Assembly: GCA_014874355.1 (NCBI GenBank) | Contig: JACWAJ010000066.1 | Location: forward strand, 12,417-76,416 | Origin: a bacterium | Lineage (GTDB): Bacteria > Chloroflexota > Dormibacteria > Aeolococcales > Aeolococcaceae | Length of the DNA stretch: 64,000 nt | Reading direction: 5' to 3' | Part shown: one piece after another, positions 1,620 to 56,225 of the stretch | Position numbering within the stretch: the stretch's first letter is position 1 | Layout: every line of letters begins with the position of its first letter | Made by a program: the position numbers and the translations under genes | The notes under the pieces: generated by a model | Databases searched by the model: none | The model's input: the letters and a program-made list of their open reading frames with translations, nothing else | Told to the model about the DNA's origin: nothing

Positions 1620-2653
1620 GGTTCGCCACCGATTCCGAGATCGCCAACTGGGACGAACTTGTTGCGGCCAACCCCGACGGCGGGCACATCCTGCAGACGC
1701 GCGCTTGGGGAGATTTCAAGGCCCAGTGGGGCTGGCGACCACGCCACGTCATCGCGAGCGGCGACACCGTCGACCTGGCAATACTCTTCCTCACCCGCAA
1801 GATCACCGGGCTTGGCGAGTTGTGGTACGCCCCCAAGGGCCCGGGAATCATCCGGCCACAGTCAATGGTCGATGCCCTGTGCCAGCGCCGTCTCTTCGGC
1901 CCGGCCTTCTGCGTGAAGGTAGAACCCGAGATTGCGCAGGGTACCGATCTGGGCACATGGGAAGCGCAGGGGTTGGTCAAAGCGCCACAGGACGTGCAGA
2001 TCAACCGCGCCACGATCATCGTCGACCTGCGCCCTGACGAAGATGCGCTACTGGCATCGTTCAAGTCCAAGACGCGCTACAACATCCGGCTCGCGCAGCG
2101 CAAAGGTGTCGTGGTGCGCCATATGCCGGTCAACGACAAGACCATCGACGTCATGTTTGCGCTCATGGTCGCCACGCAACAGCGTGCGGGATTCACCCTG
2201 CGCCAGCGTGATTACTTCGCCGGTTACTGGCAAAGGCAGCATGCCTGCGGACAGGGCGATTTCTTCTTTGCTCTCCACGACGAAGAGGTGCTGGCCGGAA
2301 TCTTCGTGACCCATTTCGGCACGCGCGCCTGGTACAAGGATGGCGGCTCAACCAAACTCCATCAGGAATTGATGGCCCCTCACCTGCTGCAATGGGAGGT
2401 CATGCGCCATCTGCGCGCCCGCGGCGTTACCGACTACGACCTGGTGGCGGTGCCGCGCCCCCAGGAGATGAGTGAGACGCATCCCATGTACGGCCTCTAC
2501 CGCTTCAAGTCGGGATTCTGCGACACCGTGACGGATTTCGTCGGGACATGGGATCTGCCGCTGCGCCAGACCCGCTACTCGGCCTGGAATCGCCTCGGTG
2601 AGCGCGCCGCGCAGCGGTGGACGCTTCGCGCGCGGCACAACATCTTCTACTAG
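1617..2653 (+). CDS. FemAB/FemX-family peptidyltransferase, paralog 2 (tandem duplicate)
   Basis: Similar architecture (ILQTRAWGDFKAQWGW..., C-terminal YRFKSGF). GTG start at 1617 overlaps the upstream stop by 4 nt. Confidence 0.7.
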
Positions 2654-2735
2654 CCAGGATCGTTAGGTGGGCTTATTAGAGGCTATCTTCTAATAAGGGG
2701 TTCCAAGATCAGCACTTAGCCGCTAAAATACCGCC

Positions 2736-4289
2736 ATGCCCAGCCGGGATCCGGACTATATGCTCAAGCGCCCTCACCCCCCACAACGATCAACCCCGTG
2801 GTCGGCGGTCAGCGTTGAAGACGATGCCCGGATCATCGATCGGAATCCCTGGTGGTTCAATGCAGAATGGTCCCGATCCGATCCGCACCTTCGCCGGCTG
2901 GAAGCACAACCTGTCAAATTGCCGGCTCCCCTGGTCAAGAACTTCGACCTGCTCCATGCCGGTGTCCACACGATCCGCGGACCTCGACAGGTGGGCAAGT
3001 CGACCGACCTCAAACTCCTGGTGCAACGTGCCCTCCAGGAGGGTTATTCCGCGCGCCAGATCATTTATCTAGCCCTTGACCTGCTGGAAGGTCAGCCGGC
3101 AGCAGCGGTGTCGCGCACTGTCGAACAGGCCAAGCATCTGGCGACAGCGGTGGGCCGGTCCCTACTGCTTCTCGACGAAGTCAGCGCCGTTCCGGGTTGG
3201 CAAACCGCAATCAAGGAACTCTGGGATCGTGGTGTCATCGACAACGATGTCGTTGTCTGTACTGGTTCGTCAGCGATTGACCTTGTGACGGGAACGGTCG
3301 AACGGCTGCCGGGACGGCGCGGTCACGGTCATGATCATCTGGTCCTGCCACAGTCCTTCGATGTGTTCGCCAAGGTCGTGGACCCGGACATACCGACCTC
3401 CCCACGGCTGACCCTCGAGTCGCTGTTGTCCTCAGATGGTCGCAAGCTCATCGAGGAGGCCCGGCGCTACGGACCGCGATTGCATGACGCATTCCACCGA
3501 TACCTTCGCTTCGGCGGGCTTCCCGCAGCGGTCGTCGAGGCGGCCACGGGCGCGCTCGAGCCATCGGAGTTCACCAAACGCATCCTCTGGGACTCCCTGT
3601 TGAAGGAGACCATGCGAAAAGGTGCGAGTGAGCCCTCAACCCGGGCCTTACTCGAACGGGTCATGCGCTCATTGGGCTCCAAGACCAACTGGTCGACCAT
3701 GGCACGCGAGATGAACGTTCCTCTGGGCCGGCGAGGCGGGGTTCACCCCGACTACAAAACGGTCCGCGAGTACATTGAATTTCTCACGATCGGCTACTTT
3801 CTTCTGGCTGTCTACTTTTGGAAGAAAGACGCTGACAGCAACTCGCTGGCACACGACAAGAAGGTGTATTTCGGCGACCTCCTCCTACACGAGATCACCC
3901 ATGATGAGTGTTGCCCGGGCAGGAACTTCGATATCCCCGCAATGGTCGAGAATGCGGTTGCGCTTGCGTTGTACCGAACCAATGAGCCGGTGCGCAGGCA
4001 GATCATGGGGTTTCTCGACCCGGACGACCTGCACATTTGGGAGACCGCGAAAGGCGCTGAGGTGGACTTCGTCTGTGGCCCGCGATCAACGGCCACTCCG
4101 GTCGAGGTGAAGTGGGAAAACCGGGTTGACCGGCGTGAGTTGAGCCGCCTCAAACGCGCGTTCCCGAACCGGCCCATCATCCTGACCACCAAGTCCGAGC
4201 TGGAACTCACCGATGAGCATGTGATGATCCCCGTCCCGCTCTTGTTATGGGCGGTGGGAGACGTCACCGGCAAGTCTCTCGCGACATGA
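2736..4289 (+). CDS. AAA-family ATPase, DUF4143-type (ATP-binding protein)
   Basis: Walker A GPRQVGKST after NPWW motif; Walker B LLLLDEV. Lower GC in 3' half. Confidence 0.7.
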   Translation: MPSRDPDYMLKRPHPPQRSTPWSAVSVEDDARIIDRNPWWFNAEWSRSDPHLRRLEAQPVKLPAPLVKNFDLLHAGVHTIRGPRQVGKSTDLKLLVQRALQEGYSARQIIYLALDLLEGQPAAAVSRTVEQAKHLATAVGRSLLLLDEVSAVPGWQTAIKELWDRGVIDNDVVVCTGSSAIDLVTGTVERLPGRRGHGHDHLVLPQSFDVFAKVVDPDIPTSPRLTLESLLSSDGRKLIEEARRYGPRLHDAFHRYLRFGGLPAAVVEAATGALEPSEFTKRILWDSLLKETMRKGASEPSTRALLERVMRSLGSKTNWSTMAREMNVPLGRRGGVHPDYKTVREYIEFLTIGYFLLAVYFWKKDADSNSLAHDKKVYFGDLLLHEITHDECCPGRNFDIPAMVENAVALALYRTNEPVRRQIMGFLDPDDLHIWETAKGAEVDFVCGPRSTATPVEVKWENRVDRRELSRLKRAFPNRPIILTTKSELELTDEHVMIPVPLLLWAVGDVTGKSLAT

Positions 4290-49703: not shown

Positions 49704-50537
49704 GTGACTATCTCGAATCATTCTGCGATGGCCGCCAGCGTGCTCGCCGGCAAACGCATTCTCGTCACGGGAGTGCTGACGCCCAAGAGCATTGCTTTTG
49801 CGATCGCGGCCGCCTGTCAGGCCGCCGGAGCGGAGATTGCGCTGACGTCCTTCGGCCGGGCCATGAGCCTCACTCAACGCAGTGCTTTGCGACTGTCGCC
49901 GGTGCCGCACGTCTTCGAGATGGACGCGGTCGATACCGATCAGGTTGCCGCTGTCGCCTCCGCGGTGAAAGATCGATGGGGCGGGGTTGATAGTGTGGTC
50001 CACGCCATCGGCTACGCACCTGAAGATTGTCTGGGTGGCAATTTCATGGAGACGCCGTGGGAGTCGGTGGCCACCGCCATACACGTCAGCAGCTTTTCCA
50101 TGAAGACGCTGGCTCGCGAGTTTTCGCCACTGATGCCCCAAACTGGTGGTGCGATGCTGGCGCTGACGTTCGACGCCACCGTGGCGTGGCCGTTGTACGA
50201 CTGGATGGGGCCGACGAAGGCGGCGCTGGAATCCATCGTGCGCTACTTGGCTCGCGACCTGGGCGATCGGAGAATTCGCGTCAACACCATTGCCGCCGGT
50301 CCTCTCAACACCATTGCCGCCAGGGCGGTCCCCGGATTTGAGGCCTTGCGCAACGCGTGGGCCGATCGGTCGCCGCTCCACTGGGACACCGGTGACGCCG
50401 GTCCGGTGGCCGATGCGGCAGTTTTTCTATTAAGTGACATGGCGCGAGCCGTCACCGGTGAGATCCTGCATGTTGACGGCGGCTTCCATTGCCTTGGTGC
50501 CCGCAACGTGGGCCCCGATTTTGGACCTACGGAGTAG
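49704..50537 (+). CDS. fabI: Enoyl-[acyl-carrier-protein] reductase (NADH), FabI/InhA type
   Basis: SDR fold with GKRILVTGV…, Y-x6-K region, C-terminal GEILHVDGGFH. Confidence 0.85.
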   Translation: MTISNHSAMAASVLAGKRILVTGVLTPKSIAFAIAAACQAAGAEIALTSFGRAMSLTQRSALRLSPVPHVFEMDAVDTDQVAAVASAVKDRWGGVDSVVHAIGYAPEDCLGGNFMETPWESVATAIHVSSFSMKTLAREFSPLMPQTGGAMLALTFDATVAWPLYDWMGPTKAALESIVRYLARDLGDRRIRVNTIAAGPLNTIAARAVPGFEALRNAWADRSPLHWDTGDAGPVADAAVFLLSDMARAVTGEILHVDGGFHCLGARNVGPDFGPTE

Positions 50538-50543
50538 GACTGA

Positions 50544-51794
50544 ATGAGTGACAAGCGCGAGTCCGTGCGAGTGGTGGTTACCGGCATGGGGGCGGTCACT
50601 CCACTTGGTCTGGATGTCGATTCGACGTGGGCTGCCGCTCGGAGTGGTGTCTCTGGCGTCGACAAGATCACCGCGTTTGACGCTTCCAACCTGGCCACTC
50701 AAATCGCTGCCGAGGTCAAGGGGTTCGATCCTGAGGCCGTGTTGGGCAGGAAGGAGGCGCGACGTTCGAGCCGGACCATCCAGTTGGCGGTGGCGGCGGC
50801 GCGCGAGGCGGTCGCGGATTCCGGACTCGACATTGCCGCGATTGCAGAGCAGGTCGGCGTGCTCGTCGGCTCGGGGATTGGCGGTTTGGAGGTACTGGAG
50901 CGTGCGGTGGTCGCGTTGCACACGCAGTCGCCGCGTCGCGTTTCTCCGTTCACGGTGCCCTCGATGATTCCTGACATGCCGGCAGGCATGGTCGCCATCG
51001 ACATCGGTGCCAAGGGCCCCAATTTCGCGGTTGTGAGTGCATGTGCCAGTGGCGCTCATGCCATCGGTGAGGCGGCGGAGTGGATCCGCCGTGGGGACGC
51101 CATTGCCGTGGTCAGCGGGGGGGCCGAGGCGGCGATCTGCGGAATCGGCATTGCCAGTTTCAACGCCATGCAGGCGCTTTCCACGCGCAACGACGAACCA
51201 ATGAAGGCGTCGAGACCGTTCGAAAAGGACCGCGATGGCTTTGTCATGGGTGAAGGCGCGGGCATCCTCATCCTCGAGGAGTACGAACATGCTCGGCGCC
51301 GAGGTGCGCGCATCCACGCCGAACTCGTCGGCTACGGCGCCACCGCCGACGCAGCGCATATCACAGCCCCGGATCCCACGGGTCAAGGGGCGCGGCGTAG
51401 CGTCACCAATGCCCTGAATCGCGCGCATCGCACCCCTGACGAAATTGGTTACATCAACGCCCATGGCACTTCGACACAGCTCAACGATGTGGCCGAGACC
51501 AAGGCCATGCGAGCGGCGCTCGGTAGCGCCGCAACACGCATCCCGATGTCGTCGACAAAGTCGATGCACGGCCATCTGCTGGGTGCGGCTGGTGCTGTGG
51601 AGGCCGTCATCAGCATCAAGGCGATCCAAGACCAGTACGTGCCGCCGACAATCAATCTCGATGTGCCCGATCCAGAATGCGACCTAGATTACGTTCCCCA
51701 CGTTGGCCGCAATGCGGCTATAGATCTTGCCATCAGCACGTCGTTTGGCTTTGGCGGGCACAATGCGTGCCTGGCTTTTGCCAAGATTGACTAA
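50544..51794 (+). CDS. fabF: 3-oxoacyl-ACP synthase II
   Basis: Active-site SACASGAHAIG Cys, HGTSTQLND and …GHLLGAAG His motifs. Confidence 0.9.
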   Translation: MSDKRESVRVVVTGMGAVTPLGLDVDSTWAAARSGVSGVDKITAFDASNLATQIAAEVKGFDPEAVLGRKEARRSSRTIQLAVAAAREAVADSGLDIAAIAEQVGVLVGSGIGGLEVLERAVVALHTQSPRRVSPFTVPSMIPDMPAGMVAIDIGAKGPNFAVVSACASGAHAIGEAAEWIRRGDAIAVVSGGAEAAICGIGIASFNAMQALSTRNDEPMKASRPFEKDRDGFVMGEGAGILILEEYEHARRRGARIHAELVGYGATADAAHITAPDPTGQGARRSVTNALNRAHRTPDEIGYINAHGTSTQLNDVAETKAMRAALGSAATRIPMSSTKSMHGHLLGAAGAVEAVISIKAIQDQYVPPTINLDVPDPECDLDYVPHVGRNAAIDLAISTSFGFGGHNACLAFAKID

Positions 51795-51817: not shown

Positions 51818-52543
51818 TCAGTCGAGAACGTCAAAACGGTAGCCAACGCCTCGAAGCGTGGTGATCCGAACACCGGCGTTGGCGGGAAGCTTCTGGCGAA
51901 GCCACGCAATGTGGACGTCGACGGTATTGGTGGCACCAACATACTGCGGCCCCCAGACGGCGGCCAGCAACCCGTCCCGGCGCAAAACAATTCCTGAATG
52001 TGCCGCCAGGAAGAGCAGCAGATCGAACTCACGCGGAGAGATGTGAAGTTCGGTTTTATCGGCACAAGTAGCACGGTGGCTTTGCGGATCGAGCGTGAGC
52101 TTTCCGGCGACAACCGGGTCGGCGGAGCGTGGTATTGGGTTTTCGTTCCGCCGCAGTAACGCGTTCGCCTGAGCCACGACAAGGACCACGGGATCCCCGA
52201 GATCAAGGCTGGCGTCGGCTCCGGCATCGAGTGCTGCAGCACGTTCCGCAATGCTGCTGCGGCTAAGAACGATGAGCGGTGCCGCCGTGGTGCGCCGGAA
52301 TGAGAGGGTTTCGGCCACTGGCGAGTGAGCCAAGGCGACGATGAGACAGACGTTCTTCGGCGCCACCTCCGACGACCAGTGATGCAAGGCTAGGACGCGG
52401 CGATTGTCGATCGCCAGACTCCGCTGCAGCGCCACGGCGAAATCCTCGGGAACGTGGATGAGTACGACTGCGAAAGTCACTGCTAGTAATTGGAAATGTT
52501 GAGTTCTTCGATCTGGGCGTGCTGGCGGCGGTGCTACCTGCAT
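51818..52543 (-). CDS. OmpR/PhoB-family winged-helix regulator with degenerate (likely non-phosphorylatable) receiver domain
   Basis: C-terminal trans_reg_C (…LRRDGLLAAVWGPQYVGATNTVDVHIAWLRQKL…LRGVGYRF). The N-terminal region lacks the acidic pocket/Asp pattern. Start uncertain. Confidence 0.55.
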   Translation of the reverse strand: MQVAPPPARPDRRTQHFQLLAVTFAVVLIHVPEDFAVALQRSLAIDNRRVLALHHWSSEVAPKNVCLIVALAHSPVAETLSFRRTTAAPLIVLSRSSIAERAAALDAGADASLDLGDPVVLVVAQANALLRRNENPIPRSADPVVAGKLTLDPQSHRATCADKTELHISPREFDLLLFLAAHSGIVLRRDGLLAAVWGPQYVGATNTVDVHIAWLRQKLPANAGVRITTLRGVGYRFDVLD

Positions 52544-52767
52544 ACCGTGCGGCGCGCCTCAACGTGCTCGATGCCATCGCGATGGAGTAAGGACGAGCCC
52601 CTACTCGTAACATGGGGCCCTACTCATAACTTTTGAGTTTCCGGTCCTATGGCCCAGGAATGTCGAGGATTACATCGCTCTTGGCGTCCGGACAGCCCCA
52701 TCGAGCGTCAGTTCATTTCCGCCGACACATGATAGGCGTTGCTTGCATATGATAGGATTGTCATGCA

Positions 52768-53424
52768 ATGGACGTGGCCCATCCCTATCTTGTCCTCATG
52801 TCCAAGGTGGCTGGTGCAACGTTTCTTGTGCTGAGCCGGACGACCGGACCTATGACCGGCCGACAGATTGCCCGTCTGGCCGGGGCATCGCAGCCTGCGG
52901 TACAGGCTGCACTAACCCACCTGGTCGAGCACGGTCTGGTTGAATCACGGTCGGCAGGCCGAGCGAACCTCTATTCCCTCAATCGCGACCATATCGCCAT
53001 GCCGGCGGTGGAAGCTGCTCTGGGGATGAAAGCGGCCTTGGTCGAGCGACTCCGAAGCTTTGTGAAGAAATGGTCTTCTTCGGAGTCTGCGCCGGTTCAT
53101 ATATCTCTGTTCGGATCGACGGCCCGGGGCGACGGGGACACGCACAGCGATATAGACCTCTTCATTGTCCGTCTCGAGACTTGCGATGCCGATGACGCCA
53201 CATGGAGGCGCCAAATAGCGGAATTGCAGAATCAGGTCGAACGGTGGACGGGAAACCGTGTTGCACCCATCGATGTGAGTTGGGGGAAACTGAGACAGAT
53301 GGCGCAGCAGAACTCTCGCCTGCTGGCAGATGTGCGCCGGGATGCGGTCCTTGTCGTTGGCTCTCCGATTGACGAGCTACTCAGTTATAGGCGGTTGCCC
53401 ATGCAACAGGGGGAGTCCGGTTGA
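52768..53424 (+). CDS. wHTH + minimal nucleotidyltransferase (MNT/MntA-like) protein, putative antitoxin
   Basis: N-terminal MarR-like wHTH. NTase motif GSTARGDGDTHSDIDLF (GS-x9-DxD). Confidence 0.7.
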   Translation: MDVAHPYLVLMSKVAGATFLVLSRTTGPMTGRQIARLAGASQPAVQAALTHLVEHGLVESRSAGRANLYSLNRDHIAMPAVEAALGMKAALVERLRSFVKKWSSSESAPVHISLFGSTARGDGDTHSDIDLFIVRLETCDADDATWRRQIAELQNQVERWTGNRVAPIDVSWGKLRQMAQQNSRLLADVRRDAVLVVGSPIDELLSYRRLPMQQGESG

Positions 53425-53783
53425 TGCCGCGCGGTGGCATTCGAACGAGTCCATGCGACGTGCAGGATGCTCGAATCCGGCTTCAACACGCCGGCAAGTT
53501 CATCGAGGTGGCTCAACTCGTTGCAGCGGTGGCGGACGACGACGAGGACTACGGCAATGTGGTTGCGTCTCTCGCCGTACTTGGCGGGATTGCTGCCGCA
53601 GACGCGGCATGCTGCGTTGCGACGGGGCAACGTTCCCGGTCACAAGATCACCATGACGCCGAAAAGATCGTCGCCCAGGTCCATCCGGGTGGGGACAAGG
53701 CCGCACTTGATCTGCGCCGTCGCTTCGCTCTAAACAGCGCGTTGGCACCACGACATCGTGTTCGAACAGGCCGATCGGTTTGA
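53421..53783 (+). CDS. HEPN-domain protein (HepT-like putative RNase toxin)
   Basis: ATGA overlap with the upstream NTase gene. R-x5-H motif (RSRSQDHH). ~120 aa. Confidence 0.55.
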   Translation: MMPRGGIRTSPCDVQDARIRLQHAGKFIEVAQLVAAVADDDEDYGNVVASLAVLGGIAAADAACCVATGQRSRSQDHHDAEKIVAQVHPGGDKAALDLRRRFALNSALAPRHRVRTGRSV

Positions 53784-54327
53784 CCACGATGCCGGCCAGC
53801 TCTCCGTCGTCGAGGATGACGTCGCGGAGTTTGCCAAACTTGTGACCATCGTGGCCGAGCATCACGCTCTCGCCCGGCGTGACCTCAATCTCGCTCACGG
53901 GCTTGTTGAGAGTTGCAACCAGAGGGTGCACCATAAGTGCTCCACCGAGAACTGCCACCTCAACCGCCAACCCATCACTCAGGGTGGGGTCGTGCGGTTC
54001 TGACGGGGCAAATCCCAGGTAGGGAGGCAGCTTGCGAACGTCTTTGGCGGAGAGGCTCAAGTCAATACGATCGCGACTGAGTTGACTGATGGCCGTCAGC
54101 GGCACCACAATATCGATCTTGAGCAATGCGGTGCCCGGATGGAAGCGTAGGCGCCCGAAGCTGCGGGTCTCCTTCACGACCAGTGCGCTCATTTCCCACT
54201 TCTCGCGATCGATGAGCACCCGTTCGAGATCGCCAACAGGGTTGCCATCTTGCGTATAGACGCGTGCCCGGAGATGGAAATCGGATCTGCGCAGAAGTAA
54301 CGTACCCTGTCGCCATCTCGTCGCCAT
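53500..54327 (-). CDS. Tandem PRC-barrel domain protein (C-terminal ~80 aa R/P-rich tail overlaps the HEPN gene on the opposite strand)
   Basis: Two PRC-barrel-like segments (DGNPVGDLERVLIDRE…; GHDGHKFGKLRDVILDDGELAGIVVKP). Confidence 0.6.
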   Translation of the reverse strand: MATRWRQGTLLLRRSDFHLRARVYTQDGNPVGDLERVLIDREKWEMSALVVKETRSFGRLRFHPGTALLKIDIVVPLTAISQLSRDRIDLSLSAKDVRKLPPYLGFAPSEPHDPTLSDGLAVEVAVLGGALMVHPLVATLNKPVSEIEVTPGESVMLGHDGHKFGKLRDVILDDGELAGIVVKPIGLFEHDVVVPTRCLERSDGADQVRPCPHPDGPGRRSFRRHGDLVTGNVAPSQRSMPRLRQQSRQVRRETQPHCRSPRRRPPPLQRVEPPR

Positions 54328-54523: not shown

Positions 54524-55504
54524 ATGGGTGGCGTAAGTAGCGTGAGACCACCTTCTGAAGAAGGTCCGTTCGTGGACCTTCGGATCCTCAAGGTCGTTAC
54601 GGTGGTAGTGTCCGTCACGCTCGTTATGGCGACGGCAGTCCTCAACTACATGGTTTTCGAGGATGAATACTCGGCGTTCAGCCCCACTATGGCTCTCGCC
54701 CACTTTGCGATGGCGGGCTGCACGGTCCTCGGTGTCTTTGCCTTCGCCGCCGCAATGTTCTATTTCGTCAGGCGGGCCGAACGGCAGAACATGTATTGCA
54801 ACCGGCAGATGGCGATCGCCACCGCTACCGAGCGCAGCCACATTGCCCGTGAGATGCACGACGTCGATGCTCAGGTGCTCGCCGCCATCCACGTGCGGCT
54901 CCGAGCCCTCGCCGCTCATGTGCCGATGGGCAGCCCGATAGCCTCCGAGGTCGAGGACATCGCCAACATCTGCGGGGATGCATACCGCGACGTGCGCGAG
55001 GCACTTCTCGGGCTACGCGCGGCCAGCCGCAACGATGGCAGTTTCCTCGAAGGGCTCAAGGCATACCTGGACAAGTACAGCCGCCAGTTCGGGATTGCCG
55101 CCTCCCTCGAGACCTCGCTCGACGGCGAGCCGCAGATGTCCCCCCATTGCGAGATCCAGATCATCCGAGTCATCCAGGAGGCGCTCTCCAACGTCCGTAA
55201 GCACTCGAGGGCGCAGTCCGCAATGGTGCGTGTCACGGCGACCAACGACGAGGTCACCTTTGTGGTTTCCGACAATGCCCAGGGATTCGATCTACGTCAG
55301 GATCACTTTGACCGCGATCGCTACGGGATCAGCACGATGCGCGAGAGGATGGCGTTGATCGGGGGGACCCTGGCCATCGAGACACGCCCAGGAGCCGGCA
55401 CGCGGGTAATCGCGAAGGCTCCGTTGCGCGACATCGTGCCGACGCGGGTTCCCGTCCCAGTTGGTGCGGGTTCTCTTCGTGGAGACGACCGTGCAGTCGG
55501 CTGA
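54524..55504 (+). CDS. Sensor histidine kinase, NarL-partner type (HisKA_3 + HATPase_c), 2 TM helices
   Basis: H-box ERSHIAREMHD, N/G boxes (…SDNAQGFD…GGTLAIETRPGAGTRV). Confidence 0.85.
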   Translation: MGGVSSVRPPSEEGPFVDLRILKVVTVVVSVTLVMATAVLNYMVFEDEYSAFSPTMALAHFAMAGCTVLGVFAFAAAMFYFVRRAERQNMYCNRQMAIATATERSHIAREMHDVDAQVLAAIHVRLRALAAHVPMGSPIASEVEDIANICGDAYRDVREALLGLRAASRNDGSFLEGLKAYLDKYSRQFGIAASLETSLDGEPQMSPHCEIQIIRVIQEALSNVRKHSRAQSAMVRVTATNDEVTFVVSDNAQGFDLRQDHFDRDRYGISTMRERMALIGGTLAIETRPGAGTRVIAKAPLRDIVPTRVPVPVGAGSLRGDDRAVG

Positions 55505-56225
55505 ACCACCCATCCGCATTCTTTTGGTCGACGACCAGGACCTCTTCCGCGGCGCCATCGGGATCCTGATCGACGGTCAGCCGGACATGACAGTCGTCGG
55601 CCAGGCAAACAACGGACTCAAGGCGGTCGAGCAGGCGCACGCCTTGGACCCGGACCTGATCGTCATGGACGTGGAGATGCCGGTAATGAACGGCGTCGAG
55701 GCGACCCGCCTAATCCGCGAGCAACTGCCTCACATCAAGATCGTCATGCTCACAGTCTCCGAGCCGGACGATCACCTCTTCGACGCCATTCGCTTTGGCG
55801 CCCACGGCTACCTTTTGAAGGATCTTCGTCCCGACCAACTCTTCGACCTGCTCCGCTCGGTCATGCGCGATCAGACGCCGCTTGCACCTGCGGTGGCCAG
55901 CCGGCTGCTCGACGAGATGCGCAGCGGGTTACCGACGGCGCGCGCGGTGGGACCCAGAGCACAGGAGGAGCCGGTGATCACCCGTCGCGAACTGGAAATC
56001 CTCCAATTGGCGGCCGAGGGTCTCAGCAACAAGCAGATCGGGGCCAGGCTGTGGATCACCGAGGGCACGGTGAAGAGCCATGTCCACAACGCCTTCGACA
56101 AGCTCGGCCTGGACAACCGCGTCCAGGCCGCGTCGTACGTCGTCAGTCACGGTCTGGCCCGCCGTCCGCAGCACGACCCCCCCTCGCTGTCGCGTGGGCC
56201 CAAAGGTAGAGACCCGCAGGGCTGA
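55491..56225 (+). CDS. NarL/LuxR-family response regulator
   Basis: Receiver (ILLVDDQDLF…DLIVMDVEMPVMNG…) plus LuxR HTH (…LSNKQIGARLWITEGTVKSHV). GTG start overlaps the kinase 3' end. Confidence 0.85.
   Translation: MQSAEPPIRILLVDDQDLFRGAIGILIDGQPDMTVVGQANNGLKAVEQAHALDPDLIVMDVEMPVMNGVEATRLIREQLPHIKIVMLTVSEPDDHLFDAIRFGAHGYLLKDLRPDQLFDLLRSVMRDQTPLAPAVASRLLDEMRSGLPTARAVGPRAQEEPVITRRELEILQLAAEGLSNKQIGARLWITEGTVKSHVHNAFDKLGLDNRVQAASYVVSHGLARRPQHDPPSLSRGPKGRDPQG

Follow-up and report, generated by a model that had tools for sequence, protein, structure and literature searches.

The stretch of DNA analysed here, called the window throughout, comprises 64,000 nt of contig JACWAJ010000066.1 (GenBank assembly GCA_014874355.1, positions 12,417 to 76,416 of the forward strand) from a member of the Aeolococcaceae (Chloroflexota, Dormibacteria). 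At positions 52768-54327 of the window lie three open reading frames (ORFs), all present where a preliminary description had placed them: ORF1, which encodes a winged helix-turn-helix (wHTH) domain fused to a minimal nucleotidyltransferase (MNT); ORF2, directly downstream, which belongs to a HEPN family; and ORF3, on the opposite strand, which encodes a PRC-barrel protein and converges on ORF2 (Table 1). The preliminary description took ORF1 and ORF2 for an intact toxin-antitoxin (TA) pair of the HepT/MntA type, with a convergent and possibly meaningful overlap by the PRC-barrel gene. The overlaps themselves exist in slightly different form. ORF1 and ORF2 share a single nucleotide (TGATG) and not the four of ATGA; the start of ORF2 is the ATG at 53424, which is backed by the alignment of its homologues. 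The antisense overlap of ORF2 and ORF3, given as about 280 nt, extends over exactly 284 nt (53500-53783). The GC composition of the locus carries no island signature.

The shared end of the HEPN and PRC-barrel homologies

We show that ORF2 and ORF3 lose their homology to related proteins at the same nucleotides. ORF2 is 76% identical to its closest relative (P0001), and this likeness runs through residue 99 only. In the 80 HEPN-family genome loci whose neighbourhoods were compared, the HEPN protein is 136-146 aa long in 78 (the other two are called as longer proteins of 188 and 239 aa), and a truncation like that of the window copy occurs in none of them. Helix 4 (model residues 87-105) is interrupted halfway and helix 5 is missing altogether, together with an LxLKDxAQYG motif in which L97, K101, D102, A104, Y106, and G107 (numbering of P0003) are invariant or nearly so. 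With these parts of helices 4 and 5 and the conserved motif gone, the window toxin has most likely lost its activity, and the claim of an intact toxin was therefore abandoned.

The PRC-barrel gene presents the mirror image. ORF3 matches the Pfam PRC family (PF05239) with 34.2 bits (cut-off 21.2) in two stretches, the second of which covers profile positions 17-69 of 78 only. Only two PRC-barrel homologues were recovered (P0069 and P0070, of 219 and 221 aa). Their last ~17 residues are replaced in ORF3 by an arginine/proline-rich (R/P-rich) tail that neither homologue has and that starts exactly where HEPN homology ends: D203 of the PRC protein is encoded at nt 53719-53721 and R99 of the HEPN protein at nt 53718-53720, so that the two homologies end within the same 3-4 nt. 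Because they do so, the R/P-rich tail is, as far as sequence comparison can tell, read-through into antisense HEPN DNA after loss of the native stop, and not a functional overlap. The convergent overlap is thus better understood as a by-product of a breakpoint that took the 3' ends and stops of both genes. A similarity to PRC past the junction (GADQVR in ORF3 versus GALFVR in P0070) was judged to be chance, or at most microhomology; read on the opposite strand, the nucleotides of GADQVR give the AALDLR that is conserved in the HEPN family, and no such similarity is seen in P0069. The DNA of this region is 60-65% GC, in which long spurious antisense ORFs arise easily. A 399-aa ORF (50430-51629, minus strand), for instance, lies wholly antisense to a gene for a FabF-like beta-ketoacyl synthase (50544-51794, plus strand), and given this example a read-through of 72 codons is unremarkable in such DNA.

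The lost parts of the two genes were sought by tblastn with full-length HEPN and PRC homologues (word size 2, E<=10). No trace of either missing C-terminus was found in any frame of the 64-kb window, and a frameshift, an inversion, or a local transposition was rejected on this ground. The same result disposes of the suggestion in the preliminary description that a sequencing error might hide a stop. Moreover, the junction is genuine, and is an error neither of assembly nor of sequencing, since it recurs in contigs assembled independently from three sequencing runs: one is 100% identical over 3,516 nt (L003, SRR12217123), one 99.93% identical (L004, SRR12217122), and one 99.9% identical over 2,974 nt with 3 single-nucleotide polymorphisms (SNPs; L086, SRR12217121). 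An assembly chimera was rejected because the identical junction stands in all three, the SNP variant included. In that variant, C>T at 53631 changes the arginine of the HEPN motif (R70C) and, in the frame of the PRC tail, V233 to I, and G>A at 53390 gives R208K in the tail of the nucleotidyltransferase. R70C is what relaxed constraint would allow, although as a single SNP it is anecdotal.

The conserved wHTH-MNT/HEPN module and its upstream region

The fusion proposed for ORF1 is upheld by Pfam, by a PADLOC profile discussed below, and by structure prediction. Residues 21-62 match MarR_2 (28.4 bits, cut-off 27) and residues 96-160 match both NTP_transf_2 (28.7 bits, cut-off 21) and Polbeta (28 bits, cut-off 26.9), all of them above the gathering scores; in NCBIfam there were sub-threshold matches only, to ArsR-type HTH, MntA, and HalB models. 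The AlphaFold2 model has a mean confidence (pLDDT) of 93.2. In Foldseek searches its N-terminal half matches MarR/ArsR regulators, and the MNT antitoxins 8xeo, 7bxo, and 8xeh are among the top matches of its C-terminal half. The catalytic GS...DxD motif read earlier is present with a spacing of ten residues instead of nine, and every residue invariant in an alignment of 34 homologues is found in ORF1, which is 71% identical to its closest relative.

ORF2 itself has no Pfam or NCBIfam match. Its 67 homologues in a set of 5.8 billion proteins are all unannotated and about 137-140 aa long. Five of 16 family members individually match the Pfam HEPN family PF05168 (best E 4.5e-5) and none matches DUF86 (PF01934), while a profile of the family searched against the PDB finds AF0298 (2hsb) with the R...H loop and the DYG motif aligned. 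Several lines thus identify the ORF2 family as a HEPN domain whose nearest kin is the HEPN-T/PF05168 clade rather than DUF86/HepT, and this bears out the HEPN-fold origin given to ORF2 in the preliminary description. The same holds for the R-x5-H motif on whose conservation that assignment had been made to depend: among the homologues, R72 and H76 never vary, and the conservation of R70 is at least 90%. Three cysteines of the family, C11 and the two of a DAACC motif (C63, C64; window positions 53454-53456 and 53610-53615), also vary hardly or not at all; this is uncommon in HEPN domains, and the cysteines may form a redox or metal site.

The family is large, with 2,099 representatives at 50% clustering (E<=1e-3) and at least 428 matches among GTDB species genomes, mostly metagenome-assembled genomes of Solirubrobacterales; most members do not reach the Pfam threshold and are without a precomputed Pfam domain. 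The module as a whole occurs mostly in Solirubrobacterales and, in addition, in related Actinomycetota. A full-length ORF1 homologue, wHTH included, lies directly upstream of the HEPN gene in 77 of the 80 loci, and the remaining three have no upstream DNA from which the order of the pair could be read. The TA-like arrangement of MNT upstream and HEPN downstream is therefore conserved at the level of the family. Stop and start codons overlap by 4 nt (ATGA-type) in 53 of the 77 pairs and by 1 nt in 17, an arrangement from which translational coupling of the two genes is predicted. One Solirubrobacterales genome (L077, CAWAFK010000004.1) carries two diverged wHTH-nucleotidyltransferase and HEPN pairs on opposite strands, ~1 kb apart. 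In six public proteins (P0220, P0215, P0229, P0251, P0322, and P0339) homology is lost at profile positions ~93-105 and is followed by R/P/S-rich sequence; these look like frameshifted HEPN genes, and inactivation of the toxin, or else sequencing error, seems to have occurred more than once in the family.

The region upstream of ORF1 was compared across 76 non-redundant loci. A -10-like hexamer lies shortly before the ATG in the window, and TANNNT hexamers with the last T at -10 to -5 occur 75 times in the 76 loci, with a peak at -7, while an SD-like (Shine-Dalgarno-like) tetramer precedes the nucleotidyltransferase gene in five only. A -10 hexamer just before the start codon, without a Shine-Dalgarno sequence, is the actinobacterial leaderless pattern. 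Since this hexamer is near the ATG and no Shine-Dalgarno sequence is present, the window mRNA is probably leaderless or nearly so. This -10-only pattern emerged from the comparison across loci and not from a sigma-70 consensus scan, which detected no canonical promoter upstream of ORF1.

In the window, an 11-nt direct repeat (CAYATGATAGG) occurs as two copies 20 nt apart, and there is no further exact copy in the 64 kb. When the best upstream direct repeat was sought at offsets of 17-24 nt in each locus, 61 of the 76 loci had a spacing of exactly 20 nt, where about 1 in 8 would be expected if spacings were uniform, and the median repeat length of 9 nt compares with a 95th percentile of 8 in shuffled sequences. 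Across the family these operator-like repeats are 10-15 nt long and overlie the promoter. Their sequence is not the same from locus to locus, and a CCATATGG-type palindrome often underlies it; many loci have an additional copy that overlaps the ATGGA(C/T) start. An inverted copy in the window (CCTATCTTGT, 52784-52793) was not counted, as it falls in conserved codons (P6-Y7). The preliminary description had proposed as operator a palindrome with arms of only 6 nt; chosen after the fact and not significant alone, it was replaced here by the 20-nt-phased direct repeats. The part of the proposal that stands is the operator itself, and with it autoregulation through the fused HTH, which these putative operator repeats make more plausible. 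What is new at the family level is the combination of a leaderless-looking operon with operator-like repeats spaced exactly 20 nt apart over its promoter.

Table 1. Features of the wHTH-MNT/HEPN/PRC-barrel locus (window coordinates unless another contig is named)
Feature	Position	Strand	Remarks
Operator-like direct repeat, copy 1, CACATGATAGG	52726-52736	+	-42 from ATG
Operator-like direct repeat, copy 2, CATATGATAGG	52746-52756	+	-22 from ATG; overlaps the -10-like hexamer
Palindrome TTGCAT-N14-ATGCAA of the preliminary description	52743-52768		6-nt arms; present once
-10-like hexamer TAGGAT	52753-52758	+	Ends 10 nt before ATG; no Shine-Dalgarno sequence
ORF1, wHTH-minimal nucleotidyltransferase gene, antitoxin-type	52768-53424	+	218 aa, intact
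Parts of ORF1			wHTH ~residues 13-71; linker helices 78-100; nucleotidyltransferase core 111-198
Catalytic motif G116-S117-x10-D128-x-D130	53113-53157	+	Invariant in 34 aligned homologues
ORF2, HEPN-family ORF	53421/53424-53783	+	120/119 aa
HEPN remnant, codons 1-99 of ~138 ancestral	53424-53720	+	Helices 1-3 and first half of helix 4
Motif R70-S-R72-S-Q-D-H76 (Rx5H / Rx3H)	53631-53651	+	Retained in the remnant
20 non-homologous codons (RFALNSALAPRHRVRTGRSV) and stop	53721-53783	+	Read from antisense of the PRC-barrel gene
Breakpoint, HEPN (+) and PRC-barrel (-) homologies both end	53718-53721		Two alignments and tblastn
ORF3, PRC-barrel ORF	54327-53500	-	275 aa
PRC-barrel homologous part, residues 1-203 of ~220 ancestral	53719-54327	-	Two PRC domains; homology ends at LERSD203
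Putative R/P-rich read-through tail, residues 204-275, and stop	53500-53718	-	Antisense of the HEPN remnant
SNPs of the strain variant L086	52332, 53390, 53631		
Paired copies in L077 (on CAWAFK010000004.1)	~2363-3400 and 5302-4371	+ and -	

Explanations of the locus and its surroundings

Taken together, we consider it quite probable from these comparisons that what stands at the locus is a widespread wHTH-MNT and HEPN module in a decayed state, and not a working TA pair with a genuine gene overlap. In the intact module, a leaderless or near-leaderless mRNA would start from a promoter over which two to three operator repeats lie with a spacing of 20 bp; the wHTH of the MNT would bind these repeats and so repress the operon. 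Overlap of stop and start codons by 4 nt or 1 nt would couple the translation of the two genes, the HEPN protein would be a toxic partner of the RNase type, and the MNT would neutralize it, most likely by nucleotidylation in analogy with MntA/HepT, with the tyrosine of KDxAQYG as the candidate acceptor. In the window, one deletion or illegitimate recombination at 53718-53721 would have joined HEPN codon 99 tail-to-tail with PRC codon 203, so that both genes lost their 3' ends and stops and came to be read through for 20 codons (HEPN) and 72 codons (PRC). A single junction of this kind is the simplest reading. In the decay of TA systems the toxin is expected to be lost first and the antitoxin to be kept; the window locus fits this pattern, and its antitoxin/repressor gene probably persists as an orphan autoregulated gene.

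Several observations weigh against this view or limit it. The 99 codons of the remnant contain neither a stop nor a frameshift, and the remnant is no more diverged than the nucleotidyltransferase (76% versus 71% identity; the two relatives compared probably lie on one and the same contig). Because it is undecayed and its divergence does not exceed that of its neighbor, either the truncation happened recently or some selection may act on the remnant even now. The remnant keeps its R...H motif, and residual activity or binding of the antitoxin is possible. A deletion in situ cannot be told apart from an insertion or rearrangement, since the only informative locus of a PRC homologue (L085) shares no neighbors or synteny with the window and no PRC gene lies within 3 kb of the HEPN gene at any of the 80 loci. 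Lastly, AMPylation of HEPN proteins of this clade is put in question by the absence of the canonical acceptor tyrosine; by analogy, the conserved tyrosine of KDxAQYG is a plausible substitute, and the window copy has lost it.

It is improbable, though the better of the alternatives, that the truncated locus has been repurposed, with the wHTH-MNT acting as an ordinary transcription factor or nucleotidyltransferase and the HEPN fragment or the PRC fusion in a new role, such as that of a decoy or regulator. A nucleotidyltransferase with its full set of invariant residues, a remnant free of internal stops and no more diverged than its partner, and a new PRC sequence that by chance resembles the lost GALFVR strand of P0070 would all accord with this. 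However, the truncated form is not conserved in any other genome among the 80 loci, the strain variant carries R70C in the most conserved motif of the remnant, and the loss of 1.5 of 5 helices should prevent the HEPN bundle from folding.

We regard it as very unlikely that ORF1 and ORF2 form an intact pair resembling type VII HepT/MntA in which the toxin gene truly overlaps a longer PRC gene with a translated tail. It is true that both ORFs are open, that R-x5-H and GS-x10-DxD are present, and that gene callers called the 275-aa PRC ORF, but the HEPN protein lacks KDxAQYG and its last helix, neither PRC homologue has the tail, which begins where HEPN homology ends, and the signatures of HepT and MntA are missing, as set out in the last section. 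Least credible of all is that the junction is a chimeric assembly, or that a sequencing error hides a stop or frameshift: the source does look like a metagenome-derived contig and frameshifted HEPN-family members exist in public protein sets, but the junction recurs in three runs, and a point error could restore neither gene because the HEPN C-terminus is encoded in no frame past 53720, nor is that of the PRC protein in any frame of the other strand.

If the locus is a decayed copy, the 275-aa PRC-barrel ORF called by automatic pipelines is a fusion artefact that goes back to a breakpoint really present in the genome, and the "HEPN toxin" is better called a truncated pseudogene beside an orphan antitoxin. 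The window locus itself is then ordinary and degenerate, and its module type has already been catalogued. The interest lies in the family, a large HEPN family absent from Pfam and strictly paired with HTH-fused MNTs, with a recognizable promoter/operator and no canonical AMPylation signature. It is possible, and we put it forward only tentatively, that the wHTH-MNT/HEPN modules of Solirubrobacterales are a self-repressing leaderless MNT-HEPN variant in which the antitoxin enzyme would double as the repressor that binds 20-bp-phased repeats over the promoter and start codon, with an acceptor other than the RX4HXY tyrosine (e.g., the KDxAQYG tyrosine) or with non-enzymatic neutralization. Cultured carriers, Conexibacter arvalis DSM 23288 (L074) and Jiangella anatolica GTF31 (L060), make direct tests of regulation and neutralization possible.

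Other features surround the locus. Upstream, a divergent gene (51818-52543, minus strand) encodes a protein of 241 aa, of which residues 164-237 form an OmpR-type Trans_reg_C DNA-binding domain; no receiver domain was matched in it by Pfam at E<=1e-5, and its receiver may be degenerate or atypical. In the intergenic region upstream of this gene, a direct repeat, CCCTACTC(G/A)TAAC, occurs twice (52599-52611 and 52618-52630) with 19-nt spacing and may be a candidate binding site of a response regulator. Just past the PRC-barrel gene, a HisKA_3 histidine kinase (54524-55504, plus strand) is followed by a LuxR-type response regulator (55461-56225, plus strand), the longest ORFs of which overlap by 44 nt, and genes for TPR, NHL-repeat, and multihaem cytochrome (paired CXXCH) proteins lie farther downstream.

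Relation to known MNT-HEPN systems

Modules of this general kind have been defined by an hG[GS]-x9-13-Dx[DE] motif in the MNT, a HEPN gene downstream, and an Rx4-6H motif in its product (sensu Makarova 2009 / Anantharaman 2013), and in them the upstream MNT is the antitoxin and the HEPN protein the toxin, with a conserved C-terminal tyrosine proposed as the site of nucleotidylation (PMC3710099). ORF1 has the minimal Pol-beta nucleotidyltransferase motif and the window ORF2 has R70-x5-H76. A complete HEPN partner downstream is what the window copy lacks, and the locus is the remnant of such a module. For the intact family we infer an MNT antitoxin and a HEPN toxin because the MNT lies upstream, GSX10DXD is invariant, and R...H is conserved.

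In the type VII system, MntA carries a GSX10DXD signature and acts by AMPylation, and HepT is a DUF86 protein with RX4HXY, in which the acceptor tyrosine stands two residues past the histidine; classical MNTs are shorter than 150 aa and have no DNA-binding domain (PMC7641770). Type VII antitoxins neutralize their toxin by oligo-AMPylation, which for the window family is an analogy. In contrast to the HepT/MntA pairs of this type (Shewanella SO_3166/SO_3165, Aphanizomenon, and Legionella HEPN-MNT), the ORF2 family has R-S-R-S-Q-D-H-H-D at this place: its loop, RSRSQDHHDA, has an aspartate at +2 from the histidine, and no tyrosine occurs in the loop of any aligned homologue. MntA has no HTH domain, whereas ORF1 carries a wHTH, and ORF1 scores 23.8 bits against the NCBIfam MntA model NF047752, for which the cut-off is 60. 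Since RX4HXY is absent, the HEPN protein is not of the DUF86 family, and the MntA score lies below its cut-off, the locus should not be filed as HepT/MntA, and the type VII assignment of the preliminary description was given up. The same N-terminal wHTH distinguishes ORF1 from the MNTs of modules with HEPN-T/PF05168 proteins (COG1708-COG2250 type; AF0298/2hsb, TT1696/1ufb, ST0689/1wol), which lack a DNA-binding domain.

Only "class I" HEPN-MNT modules carry the canonical motif (PMC11586414), and for this reason the window family is placed with the uncharacterised remainder, the modules outside "class I". If the self-repressing arrangement tentatively proposed above were true, the uncharacterised PF05168-type ("class II") HEPN-MNT / PDC-M05 modules would for the first time have their regulation and mechanism described. 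PDC-M05 of PADLOC is an NTase (nucleotidyltransferase) and HEPN pair, a TA-like candidate whose antiviral role is unconfirmed (PMC12988326). It is reported to be enriched in archaea, whereas the window family is found mostly in Solirubrobacterales, and it has a HEPN gene where the window copy has no complete one. PDC-M05B matches eight of 36 full-length HEPN partners weakly (best E 1.6e-4) and gives no match to the window remnant. Nevertheless, the two-gene architecture of PDC-M05 is the same as that of the window family, and its PDC-M05A profile (PDLC04368) aligns with residues 22-196 of ORF1 over profile positions 23-187 of 201 (E=1.3e-14), the HTH part included, and is matched by all 34 of the ORF1 homologues.

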